A stretch of DNA of 64,000 nucleotides from the NCBI RefSeq assembly GCF_030384885.1, contig NZ_CP128613.1. One strand, given 5' to 3'. Below, piece by piece: positions 1 through 59,626 of this stretch (position 1 is the first letter of the stretch; the number at the start of each line of letters is the position of its first letter). A model generated the notes under the pieces. It ran no database searches. It saw only the letters and a list, made by a program, of their open reading frames with translations, and had not been told where the DNA came from. This DNA is from Escherichia coli. Lineage in GTDB: Bacteria > Pseudomonadota > Gammaproteobacteria > Enterobacterales > Enterobacteriaceae. A program made the translations under genes and the position numbers.

Positions 1-111
1 CACTTCAAAGTAGCGAAAATAGTTACCGTGCCAGGCCACGCCCATCATATCGACGTCGTGAAATGGAATGATCAGCTCGACTTCAGCGGTAAATCGGGGA
101 TCGTTAAGCAC
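1..111 (-). CDS. hotdog-fold acyl-CoA/acyl-ACP thioesterase, N-terminal fragment (gene runs off window start)
   Basis: Reverse complement of 1-111 reads VLNDPRFTAEVELIIPFHDVDMMGVAWHGNYFRYFEV from a GTG at 109-111, immediately after the stop of the upstream gene; the ...HDVD..GVAWHGNYF pattern is typical of 4HBT/YbgC-type thioesterases. Start codon uncertain. Confidence 0.5.
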   Translation of the reverse strand, partial: MLNDPRFTAEVELIIPFHDVDMMGVAWHGNYFRYFEV

Positions 112-114
112 CCT

Positions 115-1791
115 TTACTCCTTGTCCTGGACTTCCGGCAGTTGCCAGAAATCGAAAAAATTAAACCAGTCGAGGGGCGACTGGAGCGCGTGATGTTCCA
201 GACGCGCGGCGTAATGATCGATAGCGTTTTGCAGCGCCTGCTGGCGTTCGCCACGCGGCAACAGCAGCGGGTCGGCAAAGGTTTCGCAGTGAATATGCAG
301 CTTGCCGTGCTGGCGCAGGGCGAAAATCAGATTCACCGGGCAGCGCAAAATAGAGGCGAGAATAAACGGCCCCTGTGGGAAGGGCGCAGGCTGGCCCATA
401 AACGGACTCCAGCAGACGCGCCAGTCGCCGCCGCGTTGCGGGTTGATGGCGATGCGGTCAGCAACAATCGCCACCCATTCGCCGTTATCCAGCTTCTCTT
501 TTAGCAGGATGGCGGTGTCCGGGCCGATATCCGTCACCGGGAGCAGGTTGATGCCTGCCTGCGGGGCCATCTCCTGCATTATCTGTTTAAAACGTTGGGC
601 GTTTTCGCTAAACACCAGCGCGTTAATGGTTTTGTAGCCCTGAATTTTTGCCAGCGCCCGGCACACTTCCACATCGCCAAGATGCGAGGCCAGCAGCAAT
701 TTGCCGCGCGGATCGCTGACGTTAAGTGCCGCTTCTGCGCCTGGTGCAAACAGCACATCACGCCCGAGTTGCAGCTCGCCGCGCCAACTGGCGATTTTGT
801 CGAGCATGGCGTTGCCGAAACGTAGAAAGTGCTGATAGCTGTTGAGTTTTGCTGCCTGTGGTTGATGCTGGCGCACACGGGCGAGCCAGTCTTGCGACGC
901 TTTGCGCGCCCGGCTGGCGGTGAGCCAGTAGACGCCCACCACCGGGTAAAGCAGCGCGGTAAACGCCGTTCTTCCCAGCAGGCGCCAGACCAGCAGCATC
1001 AGGCGCATTCCCCATAATCCTTTCACTTCGCTCTGCCGCGCCCAGTGGCTGGAAGAGTGGCGCATCAGCAGCGAAGGAATACGCGGCAACATGCCGAAAA
1101 ACAGGCGCGTGTGCATGAGCGAGATGCGGACGTTATCTTTCAGGGCATCAAAGTGCGAAAGCCCGTCCAGCGGATAGGTGACGCGAGTCGGCACGAAATA
1201 GCTGGTGTTTCCCTGCCAGTAGAGGCGCACCATCACTTCGGTGTCGAAATCCATCCGCTTGCCGATGGTGGCGTGTTTTGCCAGTTGCAGCGTTGGCGCA
1301 ACCGGATAAACGCGAAAGCCGCACATGCTGTCTTTCAGTTGCAGGGAGAGCGTTTCGATCCACACCCAGACGTGGGTGACCCAGCGCCCGTACAGCCGTG
1401 AGCGGGGGATGGAGTCATCGTAAATTGGCTGGCCGGAGATCAGTGCCGCAGGGTGTTGTTCAGCGAGTGCCAGCAGTTTGGGGATATCTTCAATCGCGTG
1501 CTGACCGTCGGCATCCACCTGTACCGCATGGCTGAACCCCGCGTCTGCCGCTGCCTGTAAGCCGCGCATTACCGCCGCGCCTTTGCCTGCGTTTTCTGCC
1601 AGGCGAATTAATGTCACGCCAGGCTGTTCGGCAACCAGATTATCCAGTTGCTGTTGCGTGGCGGCATCGCTGCCGTCATCCACCACAATACAGGGCAGAT
1701 TAAATGGCTTAAGACGCGCCAGCACGCCCGGCATCATTGCGCCGTGGTTGTAGCAGGGGATCAACACGCAGGGAGAAAAGTTTACCGACAT
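115..1791 (-). CDS. bifunctional family-2 glycosyltransferase / LpxL-like lipid acyltransferase (ApeJ-like)
   Basis: 558-aa ORF; N-terminus has GT-A signatures (LIPCYNH, VVDDGSDA, VDADGQH); C-terminal half resembles lauroyl/myristoyl (HtrB/LpxL-family) acyltransferases. Family assignment by pattern recognition, not search. Confidence 0.8.
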   Translation of the reverse strand: MSVNFSPCVLIPCYNHGAMMPGVLARLKPFNLPCIVVDDGSDAATQQQLDNLVAEQPGVTLIRLAENAGKGAAVMRGLQAAADAGFSHAVQVDADGQHAIEDIPKLLALAEQHPAALISGQPIYDDSIPRSRLYGRWVTHVWVWIETLSLQLKDSMCGFRVYPVAPTLQLAKHATIGKRMDFDTEVMVRLYWQGNTSYFVPTRVTYPLDGLSHFDALKDNVRISLMHTRLFFGMLPRIPSLLMRHSSSHWARQSEVKGLWGMRLMLLVWRLLGRTAFTALLYPVVGVYWLTASRARKASQDWLARVRQHQPQAAKLNSYQHFLRFGNAMLDKIASWRGELQLGRDVLFAPGAEAALNVSDPRGKLLLASHLGDVEVCRALAKIQGYKTINALVFSENAQRFKQIMQEMAPQAGINLLPVTDIGPDTAILLKEKLDNGEWVAIVADRIAINPQRGGDWRVCWSPFMGQPAPFPQGPFILASILRCPVNLIFALRQHGKLHIHCETFADPLLLPRGERQQALQNAIDHYAARLEHHALQSPLDWFNFFDFWQLPEVQDKE

Positions 1792-2135
1792 AGGCGGATC
1801 TTCCCGCTACTGGCGGTGTGGCGGGCGTCACCGTCGTGACGCTGATAACTAAAGCTCAGAATCTGGCGTTCTTCCTGCCAGCTAAGCGTGAGTGTGACGC
1901 GGTTATCCGGCAGCAATGGAGCCTGGAATTTGATGTTCTGAATGGAGTGAAAACGCCAACCGGGCGCGAGCAGGGCAAGCGCGTAACTCATCGCCCAGTC
2001 GATTTGTGCCACGCCGGGGAGTAATGGTTGTACGGCAAAATGACCGCGAAACCAGAACAGATCTGCCCTGAGATGCAAAACAATCTCAAGGTGATTCACT
2101 TGTGCCTGATGGCGCTCGATTTCATGGGGCTTCAT
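1782..2135 (-). CDS. FabA/FabZ-like hotdog 3-hydroxyacyl-ACP dehydratase
   Basis: Motif FRGHFAVQPLLPGVAQIDWAMS resembles the FabZ motif F.GHFP..P.MPGV; start placed at the ATG (2133-2135) preceded by AGGAG rather than the track's upstream ATG at 2165; overlaps the upstream gene's stop by 14 nt. Confidence 0.75.
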   Translation of the reverse strand: MKPHEIERHQAQVNHLEIVLHLRADLFWFRGHFAVQPLLPGVAQIDWAMSYALALLAPGWRFHSIQNIKFQAPLLPDNRVTLTLSWQEERQILSFSYQRHDGDARHTASSGKIRLCR

Positions 2136-3483
2136 GAAATAACTCCTGTAATTGCGCATAGACACGCTTGTTCATACTGTTTACTGGCATTTCATCAATA
2201 ACGCGCCAGTAACGCGGAATAGCAACTGGCTCCAGCGTCGGGCGCAGTAATCGCCGCCAGGCCATTTCCTGGCTGTGCCCGCCGCCGTTTTGCCATTGCA
2301 GGCGAGCTTCGTCATCCAGCACCAGCAAAACGCCAATACTCTGACGCCCGCCGCGCGTAACGGGAACTGCCGCCGCCTCGTGAATACCGTCCAGCGCCAG
2401 CAGACGTTGTTCTACTTCCTGGAGTGAAATGCGTTTTTCTTCAATCTTAACGATGCGTCCGCGACGCCCCATCAGATGGAACTGGCCGTCTTCGCTAAAC
2501 TGCAAGATATCGTCGAGTAACAGGCCGCTATCTTCCTCCATCAGAGGTGAAAAGAGACGAAAGGCATCATCTTCGGCCTGGAACTGCATACCTGGAAAGG
2601 GCCGCCAGCGGCGTTGCTCTTGTTCGCGGTAACGCCAGGCGATGACGCCGGTTTCCGTGCTGCCGTAGATTTCATCAGGCCAGACGCGCAGCCAGCTCGC
2701 GGTGTGTTGTACGTCCTGCCACGGTAGTTCACCGCCAGCGGACAGAAGCACCTGAACGGGGGGCGGGGATAGCTGAGCATCCAGACGCTTCAAAAATGCC
2801 GGGCTGCTGATGAAGATATAGCGATGCTGATGACTCAACGCGGCAAACTGTTCGACATACCAGAGCATGGCGGCATGGAGCGGTAATCCCAGCGCCATGG
2901 GCAGGAAAACGCGAAAAGTCAGGCCGTACAAATGCTGCGGCAATACGGAACCGATGACACGACATCCGGCAAGACGTGCGCCTAATCGTTCAGCCAGCAG
3001 TTCTGCTTCACGGTCCAACAAACGAACAGGTTTAATCACCCGCTTCGGCTGCCCTGTGGAACCAGAGGTAAACAGCTCGATATAAGCGTCTGGCGCTATA
3101 GCGGCAAAGGTGAATGATTGTGTCGCGACTTGTGGGGAGCTTGCTACCAACTGCAATGAACCTTGGCAGTTAAGTTCGCTGTCGCTAAGCACACCATCGA
3201 ACAGTTCACGTTGCTCGTTAAGCTGGATGACGCGGTTATGCCCCGGAAGCACCGGTGTTTTTCCGGCGTGTAGCGTGGCGAGCAGGGCAACGATAAACAG
3301 ATAGCAGTCCTCAAAGCACAGCGCCCAGCGTTCACCTGGTTGTTGCTGTAAACGGCAGATAAGTTGCGAGACATCGTGACGCAAATCGCCCAGCGTCCAG
3401 GTGCTTTCGTCCAGCCACGCAATGGGCGTGTCATCAGAGCGTGGCGCAGTCAGCCAGCGTGCAAGCGGTAAGGTCTGCTTCAT
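2122..3483 (-). CDS. AMP-dependent synthetase/ligase (acyl-ACP/acyl-CoA synthetase-like)
   Basis: TSGSTGQPK AMP-binding motif; start placed at the ATG that overlaps the upstream TGA as ATGA (3480-3483); the track ORF extends to 3522. Confidence 0.8.
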   Translation of the reverse strand: MKQTLPLARWLTAPRSDDTPIAWLDESTWTLGDLRHDVSQLICRLQQQPGERWALCFEDCYLFIVALLATLHAGKTPVLPGHNRVIQLNEQRELFDGVLSDSELNCQGSLQLVASSPQVATQSFTFAAIAPDAYIELFTSGSTGQPKRVIKPVRLLDREAELLAERLGARLAGCRVIGSVLPQHLYGLTFRVFLPMALGLPLHAAMLWYVEQFAALSHQHRYIFISSPAFLKRLDAQLSPPPVQVLLSAGGELPWQDVQHTASWLRVWPDEIYGSTETGVIAWRYREQEQRRWRPFPGMQFQAEDDAFRLFSPLMEEDSGLLLDDILQFSEDGQFHLMGRRGRIVKIEEKRISLQEVEQRLLALDGIHEAAAVPVTRGGRQSIGVLLVLDDEARLQWQNGGGHSQEMAWRRLLRPTLEPVAIPRYWRVIDEMPVNSMNKRVYAQLQELFHEAP

Positions 3484-4061
3484 GAGCGATCTCTTTTCAT
3501 CACCTGACGGCGCACCAGCCATTCACCAGCCATTAACGTCCCCATCAACAAATAAGCAATCATGCCGTTCCAGGCAGTCCATAACGACATATCGCCATGC
3601 AGCGCGGTAAAGAGGGCAATTCCGCCGTTGATGATGAAAAAGCCGCACCAGATTTGCGTGACGTGGCGGGTATAGCGCACGCCCTTTTCCGGGAGGTCTG
3701 GCTCCTGCAAACGCGCCAGCCGCTCAACAATTGGCATTGCCGACCACAGCGAACCGCCAAAAACCGCCAGCATTACCGCGTTAACCACTACCGGGTAAAA
3801 CAGCAGTAGCTGGTGCGTTTTCAACAGAAAGCTGGCAACACACAAGGCGATACCCACAACAGCGACGATTTGTGTGACGGCTTGTAGCGGCCCGGCCTGG
3901 CAACGAGTCTGGCGCAGGCGCAATAAAAGCAGCAGCGCCATCAGCGGCAACAGCCAGTGCAGGCCGTTATGTGCCAAACCAAGCCAAATCACAAACGGCC
4001 AGGCGAGCAGCAATAATCCAGTCAGCAGTTTAATAATCGGTAGCGAGCGAATGCCCGACAT
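3480..4061 (-). CDS. integral membrane protein of the lipid-biosynthesis cluster
   Basis: 193-aa ORF, several hydrophobic segments, co-directional and translationally coupled within the cluster. Confidence 0.7.
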   Translation of the reverse strand: MSGIRSLPIIKLLTGLLLLAWPFVIWLGLAHNGLHWLLPLMALLLLLRLRQTRCQAGPLQAVTQIVAVVGIALCVASFLLKTHQLLLFYPVVVNAVMLAVFGGSLWSAMPIVERLARLQEPDLPEKGVRYTRHVTQIWCGFFIINGGIALFTALHGDMSLWTAWNGMIAYLLMGTLMAGEWLVRRQVMKRDRS

Positions 4062-4065
4062 CAGA

Positions 4066-4317
4066 TCAGGCTTCTTGTAGCAGGCGTTCTACGGCCTCTA
4101 CGACATCCCGGACTGTACGCACTGCTTTAAACTCTTCCGGCTTGATTTTCTTACCGGTTTTCTTTTGCAGATGCACAATCATGTCAACGGCGTCGATGCT
4201 GTCCAGTTCCAGATCTTCGTACAGGCGCGCTTCAGGTTTGATGTCCTGCGGTTCGATTTCAAACAGCTTAACCAGCAGAGCTGAGACTTCCTGATAGACG
4301 GTTTGTTGTTCTGTCAT
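4066..4317 (-). CDS. acyl carrier protein
   Basis: 83 aa, acidic, LDSIDAVDMI phosphopantetheine-attachment motif. Confidence 0.85.
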   Translation of the reverse strand: MTEQQTVYQEVSALLVKLFEIEPQDIKPEARLYEDLELDSIDAVDMIVHLQKKTGKKIKPEEFKAVRTVRDVVEAVERLLQEA

Positions 4318-4328
4318 GATGGCTTTCC

Positions 4329-4586
4329 TCAGGCACGTTGTGCAGCAATAAAAGAGGCCAGAGTGGCGACAGAGAAAAAGTGCTGACGCATCTCTTCACT
4401 TTCCGCAGAAAGTACAACGCCATATTCATTTTTCACTGCCAGCCCCAGTTCCAGGGCATCGATAGAGTCCAGCCCTAAACCGTCGCCAAACAGTGGCGCG
4501 TCGGTATCGATATCATCAGGAGCCAACTCGTCCAGATTGAGGGTGCTGATGATGAGATTTTTAATTTCCAGATAAAGCGCTTGCAT
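4329..4586 (-). CDS. acyl carrier protein
   Basis: 85 aa, GLDSIDALELG phosphopantetheine-attachment motif; 5' end overlaps the upstream acyltransferase gene, so the exact start is uncertain. Confidence 0.8.
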   Translation of the reverse strand: MQALYLEIKNLIISTLNLDELAPDDIDTDAPLFGDGLGLDSIDALELGLAVKNEYGVVLSAESEEMRQHFFSVATLASFIAAQRA

Positions 4587-5382
4587 TATTTATTCCTGAG
4601 AGAGGTAAACAACCTTGTTGTAATTGAAGCAAAAGATGCCGGTTTAACTGCCTTGCTGCTAGCGCCGGTTCTTGTGAAGTTGCATCGTAAAATTTATTGA
4701 TTTCTACCCGCCCACGGACTTCAACCGTAAAAAGTGGCCTGGCAGGTGGAACGTCATACCATTTACTTTGTTTATCCAGCAGATGCTCGCTACAGCCGAT
4801 CGTCACGATGCGTAAATCGCTGGCGCAGCGCACGGCAATATTCGCCGCACCGCGCTGTAACGTCATTTTTTCACCAGGCTTCGTCCGCGTGCCTTCGGGG
4901 AAAATCAAGATAGTGTCGCCCTGTGCCAGTCGCTGTTGGCAACGGGGTAAGAGAGTTTCAGCTTCGCTGTTGATTAAATAATCTGCCGCCCGCACGACGC
5001 CGCCAAGAAAAGGATTTTTTAACAGCGCGCTTTTTACCAGGCAGTCAGTTTCTGGCATGACTGATGCCAGTAGTACGTAATCGATAAGCGTGGGATGATT
5101 AGCTACGACGAGGCAACCGCGTTCCTGACGTAAAATTTCAGCCCCATCAATACGATAATCCAGCACGCCAAGCCCTTTTGCGACTGTTAAAAACAGACGA
5201 AAACTGGCGGCAATGCTGCGACGCGCCAAACGACGGCGGCGGGAAGTGTTCCACACCAAAACTAACAGTACGTTAAACCACACCACAGAGAGTAGTAGTC
5301 CGCCGAGGCCAAACAGGGCAAAACACAACCCGGTCATAACCAGTCGCCATGTCCATTCCAGGCGTGACATCAGCTTACTCAT
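4561..5382 (-). CDS. PlsC-family (lysophospholipid/1-acylglycerol-3-phosphate-like) acyltransferase
   Basis: 273 aa; N-terminal transmembrane segment, NH-x4-D motif (ANHPTLID) and FPEGTRT motif. Confidence 0.8.
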   Translation of the reverse strand: MSKLMSRLEWTWRLVMTGLCFALFGLGGLLLSVVWFNVLLVLVWNTSRRRRLARRSIAASFRLFLTVAKGLGVLDYRIDGAEILRQERGCLVVANHPTLIDYVLLASVMPETDCLVKSALLKNPFLGGVVRAADYLINSEAETLLPRCQQRLAQGDTILIFPEGTRTKPGEKMTLQRGAANIAVRCASDLRIVTIGCSEHLLDKQSKWYDVPPARPLFTVEVRGRVEINKFYDATSQEPALAARQLNRHLLLQLQQGCLPLSGINNASALSGN

Positions 5383-6125
5383 CTACGGCTCCAGCGCCAC
5401 TGTACGCGCTCACCAGGAAGTGAAAAAGCATCTGAATTTTGTAAATAGTGCTGTAAAAACAACATGCTTTGCGGCAGTGTTGTTTCATTGCCCGCAATGG
5501 CTGGCTGTGTTTCACATTGCCACTCATCGCCAGCTTCAATCACCAGCGCAACAGCATATGGCCAGGTCGGCATTTCTGCTGGGAGCTGCGGATGATAGAA
5601 CTCAGGTAGAAAGCCATCAAAATCGACCATCAACACACGCTGGTATCCCGCTTGTAGCAGGCTAAGCACTTCACTCAAACCTTGCTGGAAAGTGTCGCGA
5701 CCAGCCGAAAGCGATGACGAAACGATCGGCTGTTTGGCCGCAATGGTCAGGTTACCCACGGAAGAGTTGTGTACTGAAAGTGCAAAGTCGGTGGGGGAAA
5801 GCGCCTGTTCAGTTGCCAGTGCATGAACAATGCGGTAATTGCGCTCCAGTTCGCCATGACGACTGGTATACAAAACGGCGTCTGGCTGATGGCGGCGTAG
5901 CATTGCCAGGCCGCATTCAACAGCCAGTTTGCTGCCTGAACTGAGGCGGCGGGCGGTCATCATTGGCAGTTCACTTAATTTTGCCAACGGCGCGGCAGGG
6001 TCAATCGCCCACGGCTGGCGCGACCATGCTTGCCATTGCTGCGCTTCGCTAAGTCCAGGCGCCAGTGCCTGCCAGTCGGTAATATTTAATGTAAATTTCA
6101 TCAACGCGCGCCCGCGGTAAACCAA
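5379..6125 (-). CDS. hypothetical protein, possibly beta-ketoacyl-synthase N-terminal-like domain (chain-length-factor-like)
   Basis: 248-aa ORF with ATGA overlap to the downstream acyltransferase; function inferred only from position in the cluster and vague resemblance; needs an HMM search. Confidence 0.6.
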   Translation of the reverse strand: MVYRGRALMKFTLNITDWQALAPGLSEAQQWQAWSRQPWAIDPAAPLAKLSELPMMTARRLSSGSKLAVECGLAMLRRHQPDAVLYTSRHGELERNYRIVHALATEQALSPTDFALSVHNSSVGNLTIAAKQPIVSSSLSAGRDTFQQGLSEVLSLLQAGYQRVLMVDFDGFLPEFYHPQLPAEMPTWPYAVALVIEAGDEWQCETQPAIAGNETTLPQSMLFLQHYLQNSDAFSLPGERVQWRWSRR

Positions 6126-6141
6126 AATTATTAAGTGACGA

Positions 6142-7209
6142 TTATTTCTTTTGGCATATCAAAAGAGTATGCCCAACGCCTAAATTATCGTGGCGCTCTG
6201 CTACCTGAAATCCTGCTTTATTCAGATAGTCGTAAAATTTCTCTGCACTATAGAAACGGCTGTTACCGTTTGCCATGCAGGTGAAATAAAGTGAGGACGC
6301 GTTCAGGCTAAATGATGCTGCTTCAAACCGCTGCGCATCCCAGAACAACTCCATGATGCAAACTTTTGCGCCAGGCTTCATTACGCTGGCGATTTTGCTG
6401 AGTATGCTAATTATTTGTTCGGGTGAAAAACAGTCTAAAAATTGGCTCATCCACCAGATATCAGCCTCGCCCGGTAATGGGGCATCGCTTAGCATATCCA
6501 CCGCATGGAAATCTATGCGATCAGAAAAACCTGCATTCGCGATATTTTCTTTCGCTAGTACGATTTGTTGTGGCAGATCTAATAACGTCACGGCGATGTT
6601 TTCATTGTATTTGCAGCAACGCAAAGCCCACTTACCCGTATTGCCGCCTACATCGTACAATGTTGTGGGGTTGTTGGCGAATACATAAGGCAGTGCGGCG
6701 TTAAATGCGCCATCTGAATAGTAATGATCAAACGCAAACCAGCTTTCACGAGCGGCATCTGGTAATTGTGAAAGTGCGGGATATATCGTCGACCAGTCGC
6801 CAAATACTTTTAACCCGGACGGTTTTCCTTCATTGAGTGAATCGGCGAGGAAGAAGAGCCCCTGATAGCAGACATCCTGGGTGAAATCCATATTCACGCG
6901 AGTCATAGTGTCATGCAGGAGGTAATGACCGATTTTCGCCAGGTAATACATTCCCTCTTTACAGGTAATAATTCGCCCGCTTAAGCCCATATCTAACAGA
7001 ACGCTGGCCGCATATTCGTTGATATGGCTATGTTCGGTGATATCAGCCAGCGTTGCGCCATGTTTGCCTTGCCGATCCAGATATGAAAGTACACCCGCAT
7101 TACGTAGGCAGAGAGCTGTTTGAAAAAGCATGGGGGCAAAGGCAATGCGTTGAGCTTCGGTAATCGCATCCAGTGCGCTAAGAGAATCCTGTTCGTACAT
7201 GTTGGGCAC
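6142..7209 (-). CDS. class I SAM-dependent O-methyltransferase
   Basis: 355 aa; VGGNTGKWA glycine-rich SAM-binding motif followed by LLDLP...DM..D, typical of O-methyltransferase family 2. Confidence 0.85.
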   Translation of the reverse strand: MPNMYEQDSLSALDAITEAQRIAFAPMLFQTALCLRNAGVLSYLDRQGKHGATLADITEHSHINEYAASVLLDMGLSGRIITCKEGMYYLAKIGHYLLHDTMTRVNMDFTQDVCYQGLFFLADSLNEGKPSGLKVFGDWSTIYPALSQLPDAARESWFAFDHYYSDGAFNAALPYVFANNPTTLYDVGGNTGKWALRCCKYNENIAVTLLDLPQQIVLAKENIANAGFSDRIDFHAVDMLSDAPLPGEADIWWMSQFLDCFSPEQIISILSKIASVMKPGAKVCIMELFWDAQRFEAASFSLNASSLYFTCMANGNSRFYSAEKFYDYLNKAGFQVAERHDNLGVGHTLLICQKK

Positions 7210-7268
7210 AACCTGTTAAGAGGGAATTAAATTATTATCGGACCGAAGCGGCCCGACTTTAGGGGAAA

Positions 7269-7658
7269 TTACAAATCTGCGCCAGCCGACAAATTCAGTT
7301 GAATATCTTTGTCGAGATTGCGGACCCAGCGATTATAGTTTTTATGAATTTGTCCGCCTGATGCTTGCAGGTTCTGACTATTTTCATAATTGATATCGTA
7401 GCTGGATGCCGTGTAGTTAATGCGAATTTCGGCTGAATGATCGCGTGACTGTTGACGTGCTTTAATTACGCCTTGTCCGGCTTCGGACATAATCCATTTG
7501 CGTTCAACGCCAGCTTTCAGAATCGCTTTTTTCACTTGTTCCGGGGTATGACCAGCGCTGACGGTTGAGTGAACCTGATCAATTGGCGCAGTACGCGCGC
7601 AACCCGCTAAAGCACCCACAACAGCAATAGCCGCAAACCATTTCATGTAATGTCTCAT
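7269..7658 (-). CDS. small lipoprotein, first gene of the cluster in this window
   Basis: 129 aa; signal peptide with lipobox LAGC (MKWFAAIAVVGALAGC); exact start (7658 vs 7646) uncertain. Confidence 0.65.
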   Translation of the reverse strand: MRHYMKWFAAIAVVGALAGCARTAPIDQVHSTVSAGHTPEQVKKAILKAGVERKWIMSEAGQGVIKARQQSRDHSAEIRINYTASSYDINYENSQNLQASGGQIHKNYNRWVRNLDKDIQLNLSAGADL

Positions 7659-10439: not shown

Positions 10440-10997
10440 TTACTGAATAACCAGCGTATTAATGATGTTTTCTGCGGTGGTCTGTGCTTTTTGCTGATCG
10501 TCAGCTGGCAGCGTAATTTGCATGGTCAGCAGTTGATTACCCACGTTACCCAGAATAACGGAAGAGTACGCCGTCTGGCCTTTCGCGGAGATAATGCTGT
10601 CTAACTGCTGCATTTTGTGACCTTTCAGCTCAATGGCTTTGTTGGTCACTACTTGCAGCTGTGGATCGCGGCTACGTTGCTGATCTTCCAGGCGCTTCGC
10701 CAGCACCGCCAGATCTTCTTTCGGATCATCGCCCATGATGACGATGACTGCTTTTTGCCCGGTGGCGTCGGACCAGACATGCATGTTATTAGCCTGCGTT
10801 CCCAGCTTACCGCTCTGGTCGGTCATATCCGCTGGCAGCGAGAAACTTAACTTGCCATCAAGCAGGTTGACGGGATTCCCGGTAGCGTTACTTTCCGCGA
10901 CCGAACCCTGCGCCGTAGCGTTAGTGTCTTTATCATCACAGGCCGCAAGCCCCATAACCAGCAGGCCAATTCCGACATATTTAACCAGATTGCGCAT
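10440..10997 (-). CDS. dcrB: periplasmic lipoprotein DcrB
   Basis: Recognised from [24 protein letters not shown] (185 aa); lipobox LAAC. Confidence 0.92.
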
Positions 10998-11069
10998 TGA
11001 CTTCTTCCTTTCGATAAACGGCCATAACGGCTCATTCATCCATCTTATCACAACTCTGATAACGAACCT

Positions 11070-11735
11070 TTAACTCGCCTGCAAAGCGTTGATTTCGGAT
11101 TTATCTGCCAGTCTTTTCAACAGCATATTGAGTAATACGCCATACATTGGCAGGAAGAAAACGATACTGATTAACACTTTGAAACAGTAATCGACCAGCG
11201 CGATTTCCATCCAGTGTTCAGCCATAAAGGCATCTGGGCTGCGCCAGAAGGCAATGAAGAAGAAGGCCAGCGTGTCGCTGACGTTACCAAACAGGGTGGA
11301 AGCCGTCGGTGCCAGCCACCAGCGACGACTCTGACGCAGGCGGTTAAAAACGTGCACGTCGAGGATTTGCCCCAGCGCGTAGGCCATGAAACTGGCGGTG
11401 GCGATACGGGCGACAAACAGGTTGAAGTGGGCGAGCGCGCCGAATCCCTGCCAGGAACCCATATAGAACAGCGACGAGATGACGTAGGAGATCAGTAACG
11501 CCGGGATCATCACCGCAAAGATGATACGACGGGCCAGCGGTGCGCCAAAAATACGCACAGTCAGGTCGGTAGCAAGGAAAATAAACGGAAAGCTAAACGC
11601 GCCCCAGGTGGTATGGAAACCAAAAATGGATACGGGAAGCTGAACCAGATAGTTACTGGAGGTGATCACCAACAGATGAAATAACGATAACCAGAACAAC
11701 GCTTTATAGCGTTGAGTTTGCGAGAAAACGTTCAT
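11070..11735 (-). CDS. yhhQ: queuosine-precursor transporter YhhQ
   Basis: 221-aa membrane protein recognised as E. coli YhhQ. Confidence 0.93.
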   Translation of the reverse strand: MNVFSQTQRYKALFWLSLFHLLVITSSNYLVQLPVSIFGFHTTWGAFSFPFIFLATDLTVRIFGAPLARRIIFAVMIPALLISYVISSLFYMGSWQGFGALAHFNLFVARIATASFMAYALGQILDVHVFNRLRQSRRWWLAPTASTLFGNVSDTLAFFFIAFWRSPDAFMAEHWMEIALVDYCFKVLISIVFFLPMYGVLLNMLLKRLADKSEINALQAS

Positions 11736-11954
11736 ATTGTACCTTTTTGATTAACCATTGGGGTGAGGGAACCCAATACGTACGACACGTCTGTTACCTT
11801 AACATAATAACGTGCTGACCCTTTTTTCGAGCCGCCGCATGATACTGCTTTACGTTGACAATGCAATGGTTAATTTTCGCGCAATCGTTAACCTGGTTTG
11901 CTTACGGACTCACAGGGCGTAAACTAGCGCCGTTTTTTATGTGATGAGAAGAAA

Positions 11955-12200
11955 ATGACCGATCTCTTTTCCAGCCCTGACCACACACTCGACGCACTTG
12001 GCCTGCGCTGCCCGGAACCCGTGATGATGGTGCGCAAAACTGTGCGCAATATGCAACCTGGCGAAACGTTGCTGATTATTGCTGATGATCCGGCGACGAC
12101 ACGCGATATTCCTGGGTTTTGTACCTTTATGGAACACGAACTGGTTGCTAAAGAAACGGATGGACTGCCTTATCGTTATTTGATTCGTAAATCGGGGTAA
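11955..12200 (+). CDS. tusA: sulfur carrier protein TusA
   Basis: 81 aa with the CPEP active-site motif ([11 protein letters not shown]); recognised as E. coli TusA. Confidence 0.96.
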
Positions 12201-12254
12201 GGTGGATCAGGCTAGCGGACCGATCGCGCTCAATTTTGCGGCTTGCAACCGGTT

Positions 12255-12391
12255 TGTAGGACGGATAAAACGTTCAAGCTGCATCTGGCGATACGGTGCG
12301 CAATGCCTGATGCGACGCTGTCGCGTCTTATCATGCCTACGAGTTCAATGCCCTGTGTAGGCCAGATAAGGCGTTTACGCCGCATCCGGCA
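12255..12391. repeat. BIME / REP element cluster
   Basis: Copies of the REP palindrome (e.g. tgtaggccagataaggcgtttacgccgcatccggcac and gcctgatgcgacgctgtcgcgtcttatcatgcctac) in the tusA-zntA convergent intergenic region. Confidence 0.8.
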
Positions 12392-12414
12392 CGCAAACGT
12401 AATGGAATGCACAA

Positions 12415-12723
12415 ATGGATTATTTAATTCCAGTTTGTCTGGTATTGCTGGGATTGCTCGCGATCTTCACCCCCAATTGGCTGATCCCTGTTTTTATCGT
12501 CGTGGGGGGATGGCTGGGGGTACTTGCCTGGGGTTGGCTCTGGCTAATGATTTTTTTACCTTTACTTAACGGTGTCGGGCTTGCTTATGCCCTGTGGTTG
12601 ATGTTCAAAAGGCCATCCATAGCATCCCGCCTGGTTGCTGCATGCTGTGTTATCTCCGTCATTCTGATGTTAGCGCTTTATTATGCTTTCCTGACTATGC
12701 CGCCGTTCCCGCCTCAGCACTAA
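12415..12723 (+). CDS. hypothetical small hydrophobic protein (unverified ORF)
   Basis: 102-aa ORF directly after the BIME; Trp/Leu-rich with 2-3 predicted transmembrane segments (GGWLGVLAWGWLWLMIFLPLL); weak Shine-Dalgarno; could be a chance ORF. Confidence 0.3.
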   Translation: MDYLIPVCLVLLGLLAIFTPNWLIPVFIVVGGWLGVLAWGWLWLMIFLPLLNGVGLAYALWLMFKRPSIASRLVAACCVISVILMLALYYAFLTMPPFPPQH

Positions 12724-12755
12724 GCCTGATAGCCAGAGGCTATCAGGCAACACTT

Positions 12756-14954
12756 TTACTTCCTGCGCAACAATCTTAACGCATTCGCTGTCACCAGCAC
12801 CGTCGCACCCGTATCTGCCAGCACCGCCAGCCATAGTCCGGTCATCCCTAACAGCGTTGTGACGAGGAAGATCCCTTTCAGCCCCAGCGCAATGGTGATG
12901 TTCTGGCGGATATTGGCGTGAGTGGCGCGTGCCAGTTCAATCATCTGCACCAGGCCGCGCAGGTGGTTATGGGTTAATGCAGCGTCGGCGGTTTCCAGCG
13001 CCACATCTGTGCCACTGCCCATTGCAATCCCTATGGCGGCAGCTTTCATGGCGGGCGCGTCGTTAATACCGTCACCGACCATCGCCAGAGGCGCATGTTG
13101 ATTCAGCTCGGTCACCGCTTTGACTTTATCTTCTGGTAATAGGCCCGCTTTAAATTTCAGCCCCAGTTCACCGGCGATTGCCGCCGCTGCGTGTGGATTA
13201 TCGCCAGTGAGGATCACTCCTTTGACGCCCAGGGCGCTCAGTTCGCTGATGGCAGTTGCGGCGTCGGCGCGCAGGGTATCCTGCAATGCAATGACACCCA
13301 GCACTTCATCGTTACGCACCACCAGTACTACCGTTTGCCCGGCGCTTTCCAGTTCGTTAATTAAACCAGCAAATGCAACAGCCGGATGTTTTCCGGCAGC
13401 GCATATCAACACGCGCTCACCGTTAATCAGTGCTTCAATACCAGACCCGACCAGCGCCCGCTGTGATTCGGCGGCGGGAATGGCGAGTTCAGCAACCTGT
13501 GCTTCGCGTACGATGGCTTGCGCCAGTGGATGCGTCGCGCCTTGCTCGACCGCCGCTGCCAGTGTCAGCAGTTCAGATTCACTAATACCCGTTGCCGGAT
13601 GAATCGCGGTAACGCGCGGTTTACCGACGGTCAGCGTGCCGGTTTTATCAAACGCCACCTGGGTAACACGACCTAGTTGTTCCAGCGCCGCACCGCCTTT
13701 AATCAACGCCCCATGACGCGCTGCTGCCGCCAGCCCGGAGGTGATCGCCGCAGGTGTTGAGATCACCAGCGCACACGGGCAGCCAATCAGCAGCAGCGTC
13801 AGCCCTTTATAAATCCACTCCTGCCAGCTTGCGGCAAACAGCAGCGGTGGCACCAGCGTCACCAGCAGGGCGACGGCCATAATCGCTGGCGTGTAAATAC
13901 GGCTGAAACGGTCGATAAACCGCTCAATGGGCGCGCGGCGCTCTTCGGCTTCTTCGATCAGTTTCAGAATCCGGTCAATGGCGCTGGCACCCGGTTCTGA
14001 CAGCACTTCCAGCGTTACCAGACGGTCTACGCTGGTGGCGCCTGCAGGAACTTTATCACCCGTCGCGCGCTCCACCGGAATGGATTCGCCGGTCAGGGCG
14101 CTTTCATCAAAACTGGCAAAGGGCGAGAGCAGTTTACCGTCGGCAGGTAAACGCCCACCTGCCGCAACTTCGATAACATCGCCCGGACGCAGGCTGTTAA
14201 TTGCTACCTCTTCACGCTTGCCATTACGCAGGCGCGTGGCGGTTTCCGGTTTCAGCGCCATTAACGCGCTGACCCCTTGACGCGCGCGGCTGGCGGCCCA
14301 GCCTTCCAGTCGTTCACCAATCAAAAACAGCAGCAACACCATCGCAGCTTCAGCCGTTGCGCCAATAAACAGCGCACCAATAGCGGCTACGCTCATTAAG
14401 GTTTCAATAGCGAAGTAGCTGCCGGATTTGATCAGCCGTAATGCCTGACGAGCAATCGGGTACAGCCCAACCAGCGTGGTCGCGATAAACGCCAGTTGAC
14501 CGAACGGATGATTAAACTGCTCCAGACCCCAGCTGATTGCCATCAACACGATTAGCGTAATCAGCGGCAGATTCTCTTTCAGGCGTGATGCTTGCGGTTC
14601 TACGGCTGCCTGTTCATCGCGCAGGGAATAGCCCGCTTTTTGCACCGCAGATTCAACTTGTGCACGGATGTCATTGTCGGCATCAACCACCAGTTTTTCG
14701 GTGGCGAACAGCACCTGCACCTGATTCACGCCTGCAAGCTGGCGCACGGCATTTTCTACCTTGCGCGCGCAGGCGGCGCAGTCCATGCCGCTGACTTTCC
14801 AGCTATAGCGGGTGCCGGAGACGTTTTCAGAGAGCGTTGGCGTGCTGGAACATGCGCCGTCGCAGCAACAGTCGTTGACGTTCTGTACCGTGGTTAGCGG
14901 TTTGAACGCAGAAAATTGAGGGGCTTTCTTGCCGTGATTGTCAGGAGTCGACAT
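12756..14954 (-). CDS. zntA: Zn(II)/Cd(II)/Pb(II)-translocating P-type ATPase ZntA
   Basis: 732 aa; GMDCAACARKVE metal-binding motif, CPC, DKTGT; recognised as E. coli ZntA. Confidence 0.97.
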   Translation of the reverse strand: MSTPDNHGKKAPQFSAFKPLTTVQNVNDCCCDGACSSTPTLSENVSGTRYSWKVSGMDCAACARKVENAVRQLAGVNQVQVLFATEKLVVDADNDIRAQVESAVQKAGYSLRDEQAAVEPQASRLKENLPLITLIVLMAISWGLEQFNHPFGQLAFIATTLVGLYPIARQALRLIKSGSYFAIETLMSVAAIGALFIGATAEAAMVLLLFLIGERLEGWAASRARQGVSALMALKPETATRLRNGKREEVAINSLRPGDVIEVAAGGRLPADGKLLSPFASFDESALTGESIPVERATGDKVPAGATSVDRLVTLEVLSEPGASAIDRILKLIEEAEERRAPIERFIDRFSRIYTPAIMAVALLVTLVPPLLFAASWQEWIYKGLTLLLIGCPCALVISTPAAITSGLAAAARHGALIKGGAALEQLGRVTQVAFDKTGTLTVGKPRVTAIHPATGISESELLTLAAAVEQGATHPLAQAIVREAQVAELAIPAAESQRALVGSGIEALINGERVLICAAGKHPAVAFAGLINELESAGQTVVLVVRNDEVLGVIALQDTLRADAATAISELSALGVKGVILTGDNPHAAAAIAGELGLKFKAGLLPEDKVKAVTELNQHAPLAMVGDGINDAPAMKAAAIGIAMGSGTDVALETADAALTHNHLRGLVQMIELARATHANIRQNITIALGLKGIFLVTTLLGMTGLWLAVLADTGATVLVTANALRLLRRK

Positions 14955-17012: not shown

Positions 17013-17161
17013 GATAAATTGCTCAATCCGCCAGATAACACATACTTGCAGGCGGTGATGTGAATTAAGTTAAGTGATAGACTATTTCATCATTTTTTTA
17101 GCTGCTATGTACATAGCGTTAACGCTGTGCCATGAAGCAACAGCGAGGAGTGTAGTCGCAA

Positions 17162-18700
17162 ATGGCGAAAGAAAAAAAACGTGGCTTTTTTTCCTGGCTG
17201 GGCTTTGGTCAAAAAGAGCAGACCCCGGAAAAAGAGACAGAAGTCCAGAACGAACAACCGGTTGTAGAAGAAATCGTTCCGGCGCAAGAGCCTGCGAAGG
17301 CTTCTGAACAAGCCGTTGAAGAGCAGCCGCAGGCGTATACTGATGCCGAGGCGGAAACTTTTGCTGCCGAAGTTGTGGAAGTCACTGAACAGGTTGCTGA
17401 AAGTGAAAAAGCGCAGCCTGAAGCTGTTGCTGAACCGGAAGTTATTACTGAGCCGGAAACGATAGTTGAAGAAACGCCAGCGTCAGTCATTGAACCTGAA
17501 GTTACGCCAGAGCCTGTGGCTATCGAGCGTGAAGAGCTGCCGTTGCCGGAAGACGTCAAAGCCGAAGAGGTTTCGCCAGAAGAGTGGCAGGCCGAAGCGG
17601 AAACCGTAGAGATTGTCGAAGCGGCGGAAGAAGAAGCGGCTAAAGACGAAATCACCGACGAAGAGCTGGAAGCACAGGCGCTGGCTGCCGAAGCGGCAGA
17701 AGAGGCGATGATGGTGGTTCCTCCGGCAGAAGAAGAGCAGCCGGTGGAAGAAATCGCTCAGGAGCAGGAAAAACCGACCAAAGAAGGTTTCTTCGCGCGC
17801 CTGAAACGCAGCCTGTTAAAAACCAAAGAAAACCTCGGTTCCGGATTTATCAGCCTGTTCCGCGGTAAAAAAATCGACGATGATCTGTTTGAAGAATTGG
17901 AAGAGCAATTGCTCATCGCCGATGTGGGCGTGGAAACCACGCGTAAAATTATCACCAATCTGACAGAAGGTGCGACCCGCAAGCAGCTACGTGATGCCGA
18001 GGCGCTCTATGGCCTGCTGAAAGAAGAGATGGGCGAGATTCTGGCGAAAGTCGATGAACCGCTGAACGTTGAAGGTAAAACGCCGTTCGTGATCCTGATG
18101 GTGGGCGTCAACGGTGTGGGTAAAACCACGACGATTGGTAAGCTGGCGCGTCAGTTTGAGCAGCAGGGTAAATCAGTGATGCTGGCGGCGGGCGATACTT
18201 TCCGTGCAGCAGCGGTTGAACAGCTTCAGGTCTGGGGTCAGCGTAATAATATTCCGGTGATTGCCCAGCATACCGGTGCGGATTCCGCTTCTGTTATCTT
18301 CGACGCCATTCAGGCCGCTAAAGCGCGTAACATCGACGTTTTGATTGCCGATACCGCCGGACGCCTGCAGAACAAATCGCACTTGATGGAAGAGTTGAAG
18401 AAAATCGTCCGCGTGATGAAGAAACTCGACGTTGAAGCTCCGCATGAAGTTATGCTGACTATCGACGCCAGTACCGGGCAGAATGCAGTAAGCCAGGCCA
18501 AACTGTTCCACGAAGCCGTTGGCTTAACCGGCATCACGCTAACGAAACTGGACGGCACGGCGAAAGGCGGGGTAATTTTCTCGGTGGCTGACCAGTTTGG
18601 TATCCCTATCCGCTACATTGGTGTCGGCGAACGTATTGAGGATTTGCGTCCGTTTAAAGCGGACGACTTTATAGAGGCACTTTTTGCCCGAGAGGATTAA
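17162..18700 (+). CDS. ftsY: signal recognition particle receptor FtsY
   Basis: 512 aa; acidic N-terminal A domain followed by NG domain with GVNGVGKTTT and DTAGR motifs. Confidence 0.96.
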   Translation: MAKEKKRGFFSWLGFGQKEQTPEKETEVQNEQPVVEEIVPAQEPAKASEQAVEEQPQAYTDAEAETFAAEVVEVTEQVAESEKAQPEAVAEPEVITEPETIVEETPASVIEPEVTPEPVAIEREELPLPEDVKAEEVSPEEWQAEAETVEIVEAAEEEAAKDEITDEELEAQALAAEAAEEAMMVVPPAEEEQPVEEIAQEQEKPTKEGFFARLKRSLLKTKENLGSGFISLFRGKKIDDDLFEELEEQLLIADVGVETTRKIITNLTEGATRKQLRDAEALYGLLKEEMGEILAKVDEPLNVEGKTPFVILMVGVNGVGKTTTIGKLARQFEQQGKSVMLAAGDTFRAAAVEQLQVWGQRNNIPVIAQHTGADSASVIFDAIQAAKARNIDVLIADTAGRLQNKSHLMEELKKIVRVMKKLDVEAPHEVMLTIDASTGQNAVSQAKLFHEAVGLTGITLTKLDGTAKGGVIFSVADQFGIPIRYIGVGERIEDLRPFKADDFIEALFARED

Positions 18701-28858: not shown

Positions 28859-29605
28859 ATGCATTATGCCGTTGTCGTCATGCTTGAACTGCTTTGCTGT
28901 ATTCACGCTTACCGTACTGGACAAGAGCGGTATTGGATTTTTATCATCTTCTGTTTTCCGGTGATTGGCTGCGTGGCGTATTTTGTCATGGTGATGCTGC
29001 CAGAAACGGGCGCTGACCGTCACGGGCGTACCTTTCTGATGCGCCTGCAGGACAAAATCAATCCGGAACGTCACCTGCGCAAATTAACCGAAGAGCTGGC
29101 GATTGCCGAGACCAATCAAAACCACTATCAACTTGCCAACGAGCTGGCGCGTCTGGAGCGTTACCACGAAGCCGTTCCCCATTATCAGCAGGCGTTAAGC
29201 GGGATATTCGTCCATGAAGCGGCAATGATGCTAAGCCTGGCGCAGGCGCAGTTTGCCATTCAGGAGTTCGCCGCCTGTCAGCAGACGCTGGAAGATGTGA
29301 TGCGTTATAACCCCGATTTTCAGTCGGCAGACGGACACTTGTTATTCGCCAGAACCTTAGCCGCCCAGGAGAAATACGCTGACGCGGAAAGCGAGTTTGA
29401 AGTATTGATTTCTTATTACCCCGGCCCGCAGGCACGTATTTTCTATGCGGAAATGCTGGCGAAAATGAGTCGACTACGTGAAGCCAACGAGCAATATGTT
29501 GCTGTGGTTGATACGGCTAAACGCTCAAGACCACATTATAGAAAACACCACCGGGAATGGATTAAGACCGCCAATGACCGGCTGAAGCAGAGTATTGTTC
29601 GATAA
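28859..29605 (+). CDS. hypothetical membrane-anchored protein: PLDc_N-like two-helix N-terminus plus helical (TPR-like) soluble domain
   Basis: 248-aa ORF with E. coli-like codon usage; N-terminus YWIFIIFCFPVIGCVAYFVMVML resembles the cardiolipin-synthase N-terminal (PLDc_N) motif W..II...P..G...Y; followed by its own hairpin terminator; weak Shine-Dalgarno. Confidence 0.6.
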   Translation: MHYAVVVMLELLCCIHAYRTGQERYWIFIIFCFPVIGCVAYFVMVMLPETGADRHGRTFLMRLQDKINPERHLRKLTEELAIAETNQNHYQLANELARLERYHEAVPHYQQALSGIFVHEAAMMLSLAQAQFAIQEFAACQQTLEDVMRYNPDFQSADGHLLFARTLAAQEKYADAESEFEVLISYYPGPQARIFYAEMLAKMSRLREANEQYVAVVDTAKRSRPHYRKHHREWIKTANDRLKQSIVR

Positions 29606-37122: not shown

Positions 37123-37407
37123 TCAGGGCAAGCCGAAGGTAGCTTTTTTTATTTCATAATCCTGTAGATATTCTTCCAGCGGCTTTGCCGTTCCCAGCGA
37201 ATGAATTTCACCACTGTCTTTATCAATAATAAAAGGTGCGTTACCAGCTAAGCGCGCGGCCTCATCACCAGTTTCGAGAAATTCTCGTGCTTCGAAACAG
37301 AAATACCAGCCCTGGCTAAAGCGTCCATGTAGAGTAATGACGACGGCGAGATCTGCATCATCAAGGTAATGGTTCGCTTTCGCGAATGCTTCCTGATAAT
37401 TAATCAT
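37123..37407 (-). CDS. yrhB: heat-stable chaperone-like protein YrhB
   Basis: 94 aa, recognised (MINYQEAFAKANHYLDDADLAVVITLHG...). Confidence 0.85.
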   Translation of the reverse strand: MINYQEAFAKANHYLDDADLAVVITLHGRFSQGWYFCFEAREFLETGDEAARLAGNAPFIIDKDSGEIHSLGTAKPLEEYLQDYEIKKATFGLP

Positions 37408-37518
37408 AATGATTCTGGATTTTCCGATGGGGCAGTTAGGTCATGCTTTTTTTCAAGCGCAACATATCCAACAAAGCCTTAATAAAATATTGTAATTTAC
37501 AATAAGTGTTAATGATGT

Positions 37519-38007
37519 TCATTTCACACGCGCCATATAATACGCATCGACATATTCACCGTTTCGTAATGCGTACTTCTTGCCAGTCCCTTCAATCTCA
37601 AAGCCGAATTTTTTATAGACCTTAATTGCTGGCGCGTTATCAACGAACACCGTTAGTTCAATACGATCTACCCGCAACCAGTTGTCGCACATTGCAATCA
37701 TCTCTCGCATCAGGGCGCTGGCGACGCCGCGGTTCTTCCAGCGGGAGTCGACACAGATACCAAAGTCGGCAACATGACTGCGGCGTGGGCGTTGTTGCAC
37801 GTCAATAGTGAGATGACCCACAACGTCTCCATCAATACAGGCGACGAGTTGCTTGATGCCGGGACGATCGGCGAGTCGCTCCTGCCACATATGATCGGAA
37901 GGATGAGGCACCTGTAGTGTGTTGCAATACACCTCCGGCTGGGCGTGAATCTGCCTGATGGCCTCGTAATCCCGTGTTTCTGCATGGCGTATTACTATCT
38001 CACTCAT
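37519..38007 (-). CDS. yhhY: GNAT-family N-acetyltransferase YhhY
   Basis: Recognised from MSEIVIRHAETRDYEAIRQIHAQ (162 aa). Confidence 0.92.
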   Translation of the reverse strand: MSEIVIRHAETRDYEAIRQIHAQPEVYCNTLQVPHPSDHMWQERLADRPGIKQLVACIDGDVVGHLTIDVQQRPRRSHVADFGICVDSRWKNRGVASALMREMIAMCDNWLRVDRIELTVFVDNAPAIKVYKKFGFEIEGTGKKYALRNGEYVDAYYMARVK

Positions 38008-38099
38008 TCCTTTGTCCTCTTTGGGGTAAATGTCCCTTTCAACATCATTGACTTTCAAATGCGAGTCAAATGCATTTTTTTGCAAAAAGTGTTGGACAA

Positions 38100-38127
38100 G
38101 TGCGAATGAGAATGATTATTATTGTCT
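38100..38127 (+). promoter_or_regulatory. Fur box / ryhB promoter
   Basis: gaatgagaatgattattattg matches the Fur consensus GATAATGATAATCATTATC and sits immediately upstream of the RyhB start. Confidence 0.75.
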
Positions 38128-38128
38128 C

Positions 38129-38219
38129 GCGATCAGGAAGACCCTCGCGGAGAACCTGAAAGCACGACATTGCTCACATTGCTTCCAGTATTACTTAGCC
38201 AGCCGGGTGCTGGCTTTTT
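38129..38219 (+). ncRNA. ryhB: RyhB small RNA (Fur-repressed, iron-sparing)
   Basis: Sequence gcgatcaggaagaccctcgcggagaacctgaaagcacgacattgctcacattgcttccagtattacttagccagccgggtgctggcttttttt recognised as E. coli RyhB with its terminal hairpin and U-tract; lies between yhhY and yhhX as expected. Confidence 0.92.
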
Positions 38220-38341
38220 TTTTGACCTTTCGTTCTCAATTTATCCACGGGAAGTGCTTGTGTTTGTTATGCGCACTCCTGTAGGAACCGCGTCCGCTTT
38301 GCGCTAAGGTGGTAGATAACCACCTTAAAAAGGACGAAATC

Positions 38342-39379
38342 ATGGTCATCAACTGCGCCTTTATTGGCTTCGGCAAAAGCACCACCCGTTACCATCTGCC
38401 GTATGTACTTAACCGCAAGGATAGCTGGCATGTCGCGCATATTTTTCGCCGCCATGCGAAGCCGGAAGAACAGGCTCCCATTTATTCCCATATTCATTTC
38501 ACCAGCGATCTCGACGAAGTGCTAAACGATCCCGACGTTAAGTTGATTGTCGTCTGCACTCATGCGGACAGCCACTTCGAGTACGCGAAACGCGCGCTGG
38601 AAGCCGGGAAAAATGTGCTGGTCGAAAAACCGTTCACCCCGACACTTGCGCAGGCGAAAGAGCTGTTTGCGCTGGCGAAAAGCAAAGGGCTGACCGTTAC
38701 GCCGTATCAGAATCGTCGCTTTGACTCCTGTTTTCTGATGGCGAAAAAAGCGATTGAAAGCGGCAAGCTGGGAGAGATTGTCGAAGTGGAAAGCCATTTT
38801 GACTATTACCGCCCGGTGGCAGAAACCAAACCTGGACTGCCGCAGGATGGCGCGTTCTATGGCCTTGGTGTGCATACCCTCGACCAGATAATCTCGCTGT
38901 TCGGTCGCCCGGATCACGTCGCTTATGACATCCGCAGCCTGCGTAATAAAGCCAATCCTGACGACACCTTCGAAGCGCAGCTGTTTTATGGCGATCTAAA
39001 AGCCATCGTCAAAACCAGCCATCTGGTGAAAATCGATTATCCGAAATTTATCGTTCACGGGAAGAAAGGTTCGTTTATTAAATATGGTATCGACCAGCAG
39101 GAAACCAGCCTGAAGGCTAATATTATGCCGGGCGAGCCGGGATTCGCAGCGGATGATTCGGTCGGTGTGCTGGAGTATGTCAATGACGAGGGCGTTACGG
39201 TCAGAGAAGAGATGAAGCCGGAGATGGGCGATTACGGACGCGTTTATGATGCGTTGTACCAAACCATCACCAACGGTGCACCAAATTACGTCAAGGAATC
39301 TGAAGTTCTTACCAATCTGGAAATCCTTGAACGCGGTTTTGAGCAAGCCTCTCCCTCCACAGTGACTCTTGCGAAGTAA
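38342..39379 (+). CDS. yhhX: Gfo/Idh/MocA-family NAD(P)-dependent oxidoreductase YhhX
   Basis: Recognised from MVINCAFIGFGKSTTRYHLPYV (345 aa); good Shine-Dalgarno (aaggacg); the track ORF starts at an upstream GTG. Confidence 0.93.
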   Translation: MVINCAFIGFGKSTTRYHLPYVLNRKDSWHVAHIFRRHAKPEEQAPIYSHIHFTSDLDEVLNDPDVKLIVVCTHADSHFEYAKRALEAGKNVLVEKPFTPTLAQAKELFALAKSKGLTVTPYQNRRFDSCFLMAKKAIESGKLGEIVEVESHFDYYRPVAETKPGLPQDGAFYGLGVHTLDQIISLFGRPDHVAYDIRSLRNKANPDDTFEAQLFYGDLKAIVKTSHLVKIDYPKFIVHGKKGSFIKYGIDQQETSLKANIMPGEPGFAADDSVGVLEYVNDEGVTVREEMKPEMGDYGRVYDALYQTITNGAPNYVKESEVLTNLEILERGFEQASPSTVTLAK

Positions 39380-56649: not shown

Positions 56650-56674
56650 CTTTTGAGAGAACGGAATCAGCGCG

Positions 56675-58269: not shown

Positions 58270-58376
58270 TTCCCTGACTCAAAAAGTAGGTCAGATTGTT
58301 GACAAAGTGCGCTTTGTTCATGCCGGATGCGACATGAACGTCTTATTGGCCTACAAGACCATGCAAATTGTAGTGG

Positions 58377-59626
<1,250 letters not shown>

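Follow-up and report, generated by a model that had tools for sequence, protein, structure and literature searches.

Identity and domain organisation of the ftsY product

The 64-kb stretch of E. coli DNA analysed here (the window) contained rsmD on the minus strand followed by ftsY, ftsE, ftsX and rpoH, in the same order as in K-12. The ftsY ORF was open throughout its 512 codons, and the product was assigned to FtsY by a score of 385.9 bits against the NCBIfam equivalog model TIGR00064 (cut-off 260.7), the next NCBIfam model being ffh, under its own cut-off. The N + G domain architecture of FtsY, the bacterial SRP receptor, was evident from Pfam matches to PF02881 (SRP54_N, E 4.5e-15) and PF00448 (SRP54 GTPase, E 5.4e-80), and the window protein gave an end-to-end alignment with solved structures of E. 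coli FtsY NG. All elements of enterobacterial-type membrane attachment were also present, namely a basic/amphipathic N terminus, an acidic A domain and an amphipathic helix at the A/N junction (Table 1). The composition of the 208-residue A domain included 28.4% Glu, 15.4% Ala, 10.6% Val and 9.1% Pro. A 148-aa Ser/Thr/Ala-rich ORF antisense to this region (17209..17655, minus strand), which carries no RefSeq annotation, was dismissed as a by-product of GAA/GCN-rich codons.

Table 1. Coordinates of ftsY and its features in the 64-kb window
Feature	Coordinates	Strand	Basis
ftsY CDS (SRP receptor), 512 aa plus stop	17162..18700	+	ORF list, TIGR00064, Pfam, 100% nucleotide match to 2013C-4282 ftsY
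Acidic A domain, aa 1-208, net charge -50, including the N-terminal lipid-binding segment MAKEKKRGFFSWLGFGQK	17162..17785	+	Alignments, composition; domain roles from PMC5094494 and PMC2928010
Indel hot spot, aa 79-125, degenerate EPEV/PEP repeats	17396..17536	+	DNA and protein alignments, repeat families
12-nt segment (VAEP), missing in K-12-type alleles	17424..17435	+	Alignment; gap placement ambiguous by a few bases
30-nt segment (10 aa, TPASVIEPEV), missing in K-12-type alleles	17474..17503	+	Alignment, repeat search
Codons A171-Q172 (GCA CAG); ACG in K-12, 3 nt shorter (ELET-ALAAE)	17672..17677	+	Alignments
Membrane-targeting amphipathic helix at the A/N junction, GFFARLKRSLLKT, same as K-12	17786..17824	+	Alignments; function from PMC2928010
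NG core: SRP54_N helical bundle aa 225-290, SRP54 GTPase aa 308-508	17834..18685	+	Pfam, BLASTP

Comparison with FtsY of K-12

The initial annotation had given the window protein as 512 aa compared with 497 aa for K-12, and both figures were borne out by the ORF and its RefSeq annotation on the one hand and, on the other, by the RefSeq entry for ftsY of K-12 (ER3413; 1494 nt, i.e., 497 aa; WP_001040654.1) and the full-length E. coli FtsY chains in the PDB (5gad and 2yhs, 497 residues each; 2qy9 represents NG+1). The pairwise alignment with K-12 FtsY that had been proposed as a check was run with BLASTP and showed identity of neither length nor sequence, with 480 identities over 512 positions and 15 gap positions, all of them in the A domain. 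The residues added in the window protein were four after A88, ten after T105 and the single residue Q172, and in DNA these corresponded to three in-frame indels of 12 nt, 30 nt and one codon (Table 1). All three indels fell inside 17162-17800, the interval to which the difference had been assigned, and the peptide quoted for the Glu/Pro/Val-rich stretch, EPEVITEPETIVEETPASVIEPEVTPEP, was found at aa 91-118. The further claim that the extra residues lie in this stretch was correct for 14 of the 15, which occupied aa 89-115, the fifteenth (Q172) being located elsewhere in the A domain.

Besides the 15 added residues, the window protein differed from K-12 FtsY by 17 substitutions, of which 15 were in the A domain and two, both conservative, were in the NG core (T272 in the window versus Ser in K-12, and T307 versus Ala). 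Both proteins begin at the same start codon and share their first 39 residues, the N-terminal lipid-binding segment and the A/N-junction helix, and the net charge of the A domain was -50 for the window and -46 for K-12. From the near-identity of the NG core to that of K-12, the window protein would be expected to form the GTP-dependent complex with Ffh/4.5S RNA and to support co-translational targeting.

Repeats in the indel hot spot

The hot spot that includes the 12-nt and 30-nt segments contained several families of imperfect repeats. In a repeat search, 24-nt copies at 17431 and 17491 were 79% identical and an imperfect 30-nt-period pair at 17467/17497 was 76% identical; overall, repeat copies were 67-79% alike, with spacings of 18, 30 and 60 nt. 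The first bases of the 30-nt segment are ACGCCAG, and another ACGCCAG comes directly after the segment at 17504-17510. In K-12 the one copy present looks like a hybrid of both 30-nt-period units. The 12-nt segment is flanked by the near-repeats CTGAAG and CTGAAC. Flanking short direct repeats of this kind are the footprint that would be expected of slippage or unequal exchange.

Tandem Repeats Finder, applied to positions 17100-17900, reported no array in the hot spot, its sole match being a weak 15-nt x 2.2 array at 17618-17650, which argues that the hot-spot repeats, judged by their sequence, are old, decayed and degenerate copies rather than a clean tandem array. The possibility of a simple-sequence contingency locus, i.e., a tandem repeat variable in phase or copy number, was ruled out by the missing array, the divergence between copies, the finding that all observed indels were in frame and the near-invariance of the long form among the genomes that carry it.

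Compared with K-12, 16 of the 99 aligned bases in the hot spot of the window differed, which is three to four times the local background, although misalignment of repeats may inflate this count. With a difference of this size, the short form is not a simple deletion derivative of the long allele in the window. By this measure the long and short forms are both old alleles, and the event that separated them in length is not a recent one.

Distribution of ftsY alleles within E. coli

The ftsY gene of the window was 100% identical in nucleotide sequence to that of E. coli 2013C-4282, the product of which is annotated in RefSeq as an intact 512-aa FtsY (WP_001040622.1), and only 5 mismatches were noted between the entire 64-kb window and the corresponding region of that strain (NZ_CP027579.1, 3892818-3956817). 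With a 111-nt probe across the hot spot, the long form was detected in 49 of 5,426 complete E. coli genomes, including that of SMS-3-5, and was nearly invariant among carriers (at least 99% identity over the hot spot in 42 of the 49). FtsY of SMS-3-5 (WP_001040624.1) is 512 aa, like that of the window, and the hot spots of the two differed at 1 of 141 nt, whereas 48 of 1539 nt differed elsewhere in the gene and a divergent patch present in the window at 17862-17991 (see below) was absent from SMS-3-5. Phylogroup F was mixed in this respect, the long form being carried by SMS-3-5 while neither IAI39 nor CE10 was among the 49 genomes. Since this phylogroup holds both forms, recombination or recurrent deletion must have occurred.

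The length of ftsY in 40 evenly spaced genomes was 1497 nt in 26, 1494 nt (the K-12 type) in 11, and 1488, 1539 and 1377 nt in one each. Thus, the commonest E. coli FtsY in this sample was that of 498 aa (26/40), the 497-aa form of K-12 accounting for 11/40. An additional class of 1521 nt (506 aa), which was present in at least 11 among the genomes listed, contained a clean 24-nt tandem duplication encoding EVVAQPEA/EVVAQPEL; counts of this allele by a 111-nt query of its own are uninformative because the duplicated query matches single-copy alleles in two pieces. At the other extreme, FtsY of E. coli PSJ-07 is 458 aa as the result of an in-frame deletion of 40 A-domain residues, located beyond the hot spot, and is annotated as intact (positions 301-1677 of the retrieved locus). 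E. coli FtsY therefore includes at least six A-domain length classes, the whole proteins being 458 to 512 aa long. The ftsY gene of the window represents ordinary, already annotated allelic variation in a disordered linker under low constraint, and the allele is not new.

Hot-spot length in other Escherichia and A-domain length in Enterobacterales

Outgroup ftsY sequences were retrieved by matching the conserved N terminus at the DNA level with a degenerate pattern, which yielded at least 120 species representatives. The polarity of the length change rests on five non-coli Escherichia lineages, with E. fergusonii, E. marmotae and Salmonella enterica outside the comparison; the single Salmonella locus retrieved ended after 36 codons, and the hot spot of Citrobacter was too divergent for confident alignment. 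Across the gene, ftsY of E. whittamii, Escherichia sp. E1V33 and E. albertii differed from that of the window by 7-10% of nucleotides.

A hot spot of 141 nt was found in the window, SMS-3-5, E. whittamii, Escherichia sp. E1V33 and a divergent species representative designated "E. coli SCPM-O-B-8794". The corresponding lengths were 123 nt for the 506-aa E. coli allele with the 24-nt tandem duplication, 117 nt for E. albertii and Escherichia sp. MOD1-EC7003, due to a different 24-nt deletion, and 99 nt for K-12 and the majority of E. coli. FtsY of E. whittamii (512 aa) and of Escherichia sp. E1V33 (509 aa) had the A-domain architecture of the window protein and the same 47-residue hot spot, including the TPAxVxEPEV unit that K-12 lacks. 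The architecture of the A domain in E. albertii (504 aa) was also like that of the window, but with its own 24-nt hot-spot deletion. Given the 141-nt length in E. whittamii, E1V33 and the SCPM-O-B-8794 representative, the 99-nt hot spot of K-12 and the majority of E. coli is best read as a derived contraction. The most parsimonious reading of the aligned lengths is that the window keeps the ancestral Escherichia hot-spot length and that the K-12 form arose by deletions. The initial annotation had left open whether the difference reflected repeat expansion or contraction; an origin in repeats was supported by the imperfect EPEV-type copies, and the outgroups point to contraction on the K-12 side, not to expansion in the window strain.

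At the site of the single-codon indel, the comparison covered K-12 and three more E. coli alleles, five further Escherichia lineages and six Citrobacter species, and ELEAQALAAE was present in all of these except K-12. The E. coli alleles of 495 and 458 aa had other deletions near this site.

In 74 of 75 complete Enterobacterales FtsY ORFs from the matches listed, the distance from the membrane-targeting helix to the C terminus was 304 aa, whereas A-domain lengths in the 75 spanned 136-308 aa (median 213). By comparison, the 208-aa A domain of the window is unremarkable. The shortest A domain seen was that of Serratia symbiotica (FtsY of 440 aa). The FtsY ORF of Leclercia adecarboxylata NCTC13032 ends at 338 aa, which may represent a frameshift or an assembly error.

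Divergence of ftsY and its neighbourhood

Identity to K-12 was 95.2% for the NG part of ftsY and 93.5-99.3%, typically about 96%, for 35 neighbouring genes. The idea that ftsY is a recombinant outlier was rejected because the neighbouring genes showed an equal divergence of 4-5% from K-12. This level of divergence across the region indicates that the window strain represents a deep-branching E. coli lineage, which fits with a retained ancestral allele.

One short segment of the N-domain coding region did stand out. Compared with every other E. coli allele retrieved, the 130-nt patch at 17862-17991 contained 12-15 substitutions, almost all of them synonymous (approximately 10%), and compared with five other Escherichia lineages it contained 13-16, whereas its flanks differed by 1-5%. 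The patch was present at 95% identity or more in 29 complete E. coli genomes, among them IAI39 and CE10, both of which are without the long hot spot. None of 127 loci searched for a donor, apart from 2013C-4282, was more than 91% identical to the patch, which looks like a small recombination mosaic that would derive from an unsampled donor.

Several other parts of the window differed in gene content from K-12. At 1-7646 (minus strand), adjoining yhhT, where K-12 has acpT-nikABC, there was a lipid/polyketide-type biosynthesis cluster with genes for an ApeI-family dehydratase, two acyl carrier proteins, an AMP-binding enzyme, a beta-ketoacyl synthase chain-length factor, a lysophospholipid acyltransferase, a family 2 glycosyltransferase and a methyltransferase. 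A hypothetical ORF of 102 aa with no Pfam match was located between tusA and zntA (12415-12723, plus strand) and has no counterpart in the K-12 annotation, and a 248-aa TPR-repeat protein (Pfam TPR_19, TPR_2) was encoded between livF and ugpB (28859-29605, plus strand), where the K-12 annotation has a gap of about 400 nt. The genes yhhY and yrhB were adjacent in the window (37123-38342), whereas in K-12 (positions 10818-14723 of the retrieved locus) they are separated by tssD (Hcp-like), a YrhA-family gene, IS1A and yrhD. Between glgP and glpD, which we take to be adjacent in K-12, the window contained an insert (55141-59554) with genes for two PstS-family/PBP_like_2 substrate-binding proteins (502 and 330 aa), a 200-aa hypothetical protein without a Pfam match and an IS3-family transposase with a programmed frameshift.

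Origin of the length difference

The findings are very probably explained by a natural, fully functional allele of the essential gene ftsY that retains, midway along the intrinsically disordered A domain, a short degenerate Glu/Pro/Val-rich stretch of ancestral length, the corresponding stretch of K-12 and the majority of E. coli having been shortened by slippage or unequal recombination with near-neutral effect. Accounted for in this way, the K-12 and majority alleles, which are 14-15 residues shorter, would have lost 12 nt and 30 nt from the hot spot, and K-12-type alleles one further codon at the Q172 site. The most likely cause of the hot-spot losses is slippage during replication, or else unequal recombination, at direct repeats that are short and imperfect.

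The length difference could hardly be an artefact of assembly, consensus error or a mis-called start codon. Low-complexity sequence rich in GAA and CCG can be error-prone in some technologies, but the start and first 39 residues are those of K-12, every indel is a multiple of 3 in an open frame, and the NCBI pipeline annotates an intact 512-aa FtsY. Above all, sequencing error is unlikely because 49 complete genomes, each assembled independently and originating from various laboratories and hosts, carry the long hot spot. A recent expansion of repeats by slippage in the lineage of the window, starting from an A domain like that of K-12, is highly improbable as well. The imperfect direct repeats at spacings of 18, 30 and 60 nt speak in its favour, and a real, fresh case does exist in E. 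coli in the clean tandem duplication of the 506-aa allele. In the window, however, the two 30-nt-period units are only 76% alike and 16 of 99 aligned hot-spot bases differ from K-12, and the 141-nt length recurs in SMS-3-5, E. whittamii, E1V33 and the SCPM-O-B-8794 representative, in which ftsY overall is 3-8% different from that of the window.

A further account is that a minority of E. coli acquired the long hot spot through homologous recombination, with a different Escherichia species or a cryptic clade as donor, in which case the hot spot would be an introgressed patch and not a retained ancestral state. This we consider unlikely. The rarity of the long form (49/5,426), its occurrence on at least two ftsY backgrounds about 3% apart and the sharp peak of divergence inside the hot spot are consistent with import, and the 130-nt N-domain patch is evidence of small mosaic segments within ftsY. 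Against this, the hot spot of the window differed at 23-28 of 141 positions from those of E. whittamii, E1V33 and the SCPM-O-B-8794 representative and at 22 of 117 from that of E. albertii; closer matches were limited to sp. MOD1-EC7003 (8/117), in which 24 nt of the hot spot are missing, and SMS-3-5 (1/141). On these distances, no sampled lineage with a 141-nt hot spot is plausible as donor. Moreover, the whole 64-kb neighbourhood is about 4-5% different from K-12, and ftsY is no outlier within it. Even with import, the length of the segment would be the ancestral one for the genus.

Functional implications

Retention of the ancestral-length stretch, with shortening in K-12 and the majority, is predicted to have little effect on FtsY. 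By NMR, residues Ile38-Ala140 of K-12 FtsY are highly dynamic and disordered and do not bind lipid, although they make charge-driven, non-specific contact with SecYEG (PMC5094494); the elements that bind lipid are the N terminus and the A/N-junction helix, and the Kd of the K-12 protein for SecYEG is 0.18 uM (PMC5094494). Depletion of FtsY is complemented by FtsY-NG+1, a form without the A domain, and lipid stimulation is altered only by about twofold by the rest of the A domain (PMC2928010). The stretch affected by the indels would thus be a flexible, negatively charged tether without fixed structure, in which a change of length is probably near-neutral and without mechanistic consequence. 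Since both lipid-binding elements and the NG core are unchanged and the extra residues lie in the disordered stretch, no functional change is expected from the 15 additional residues, an expectation that draws on experiments with the K-12 protein.

The length of the A domain could instead be tuned, with lineage-specific selection on the length or charge of the tether in place of neutral slippage, and the scanning model, according to which the disordered acidic tether sets the reach of NG from SecYEG (PMC5094494), provides a context for such selection. This is very unlikely in our judgement; if it applied, the recurrent in-frame indels at one hot spot, which give rise to FtsY of 458-512 aa in E. 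coli and to A domains of 136-308 aa in Enterobacterales, would reflect selection.

The practical consequences are few. Residue numbers from studies of K-12 FtsY shift by up to 15 in strains like that of the window. The length variant leaves the understanding of SRP targeting unchanged, and the natural alleles of 458-512 aa constitute a ready series of deletions and insertions for testing the length of the disordered tether.
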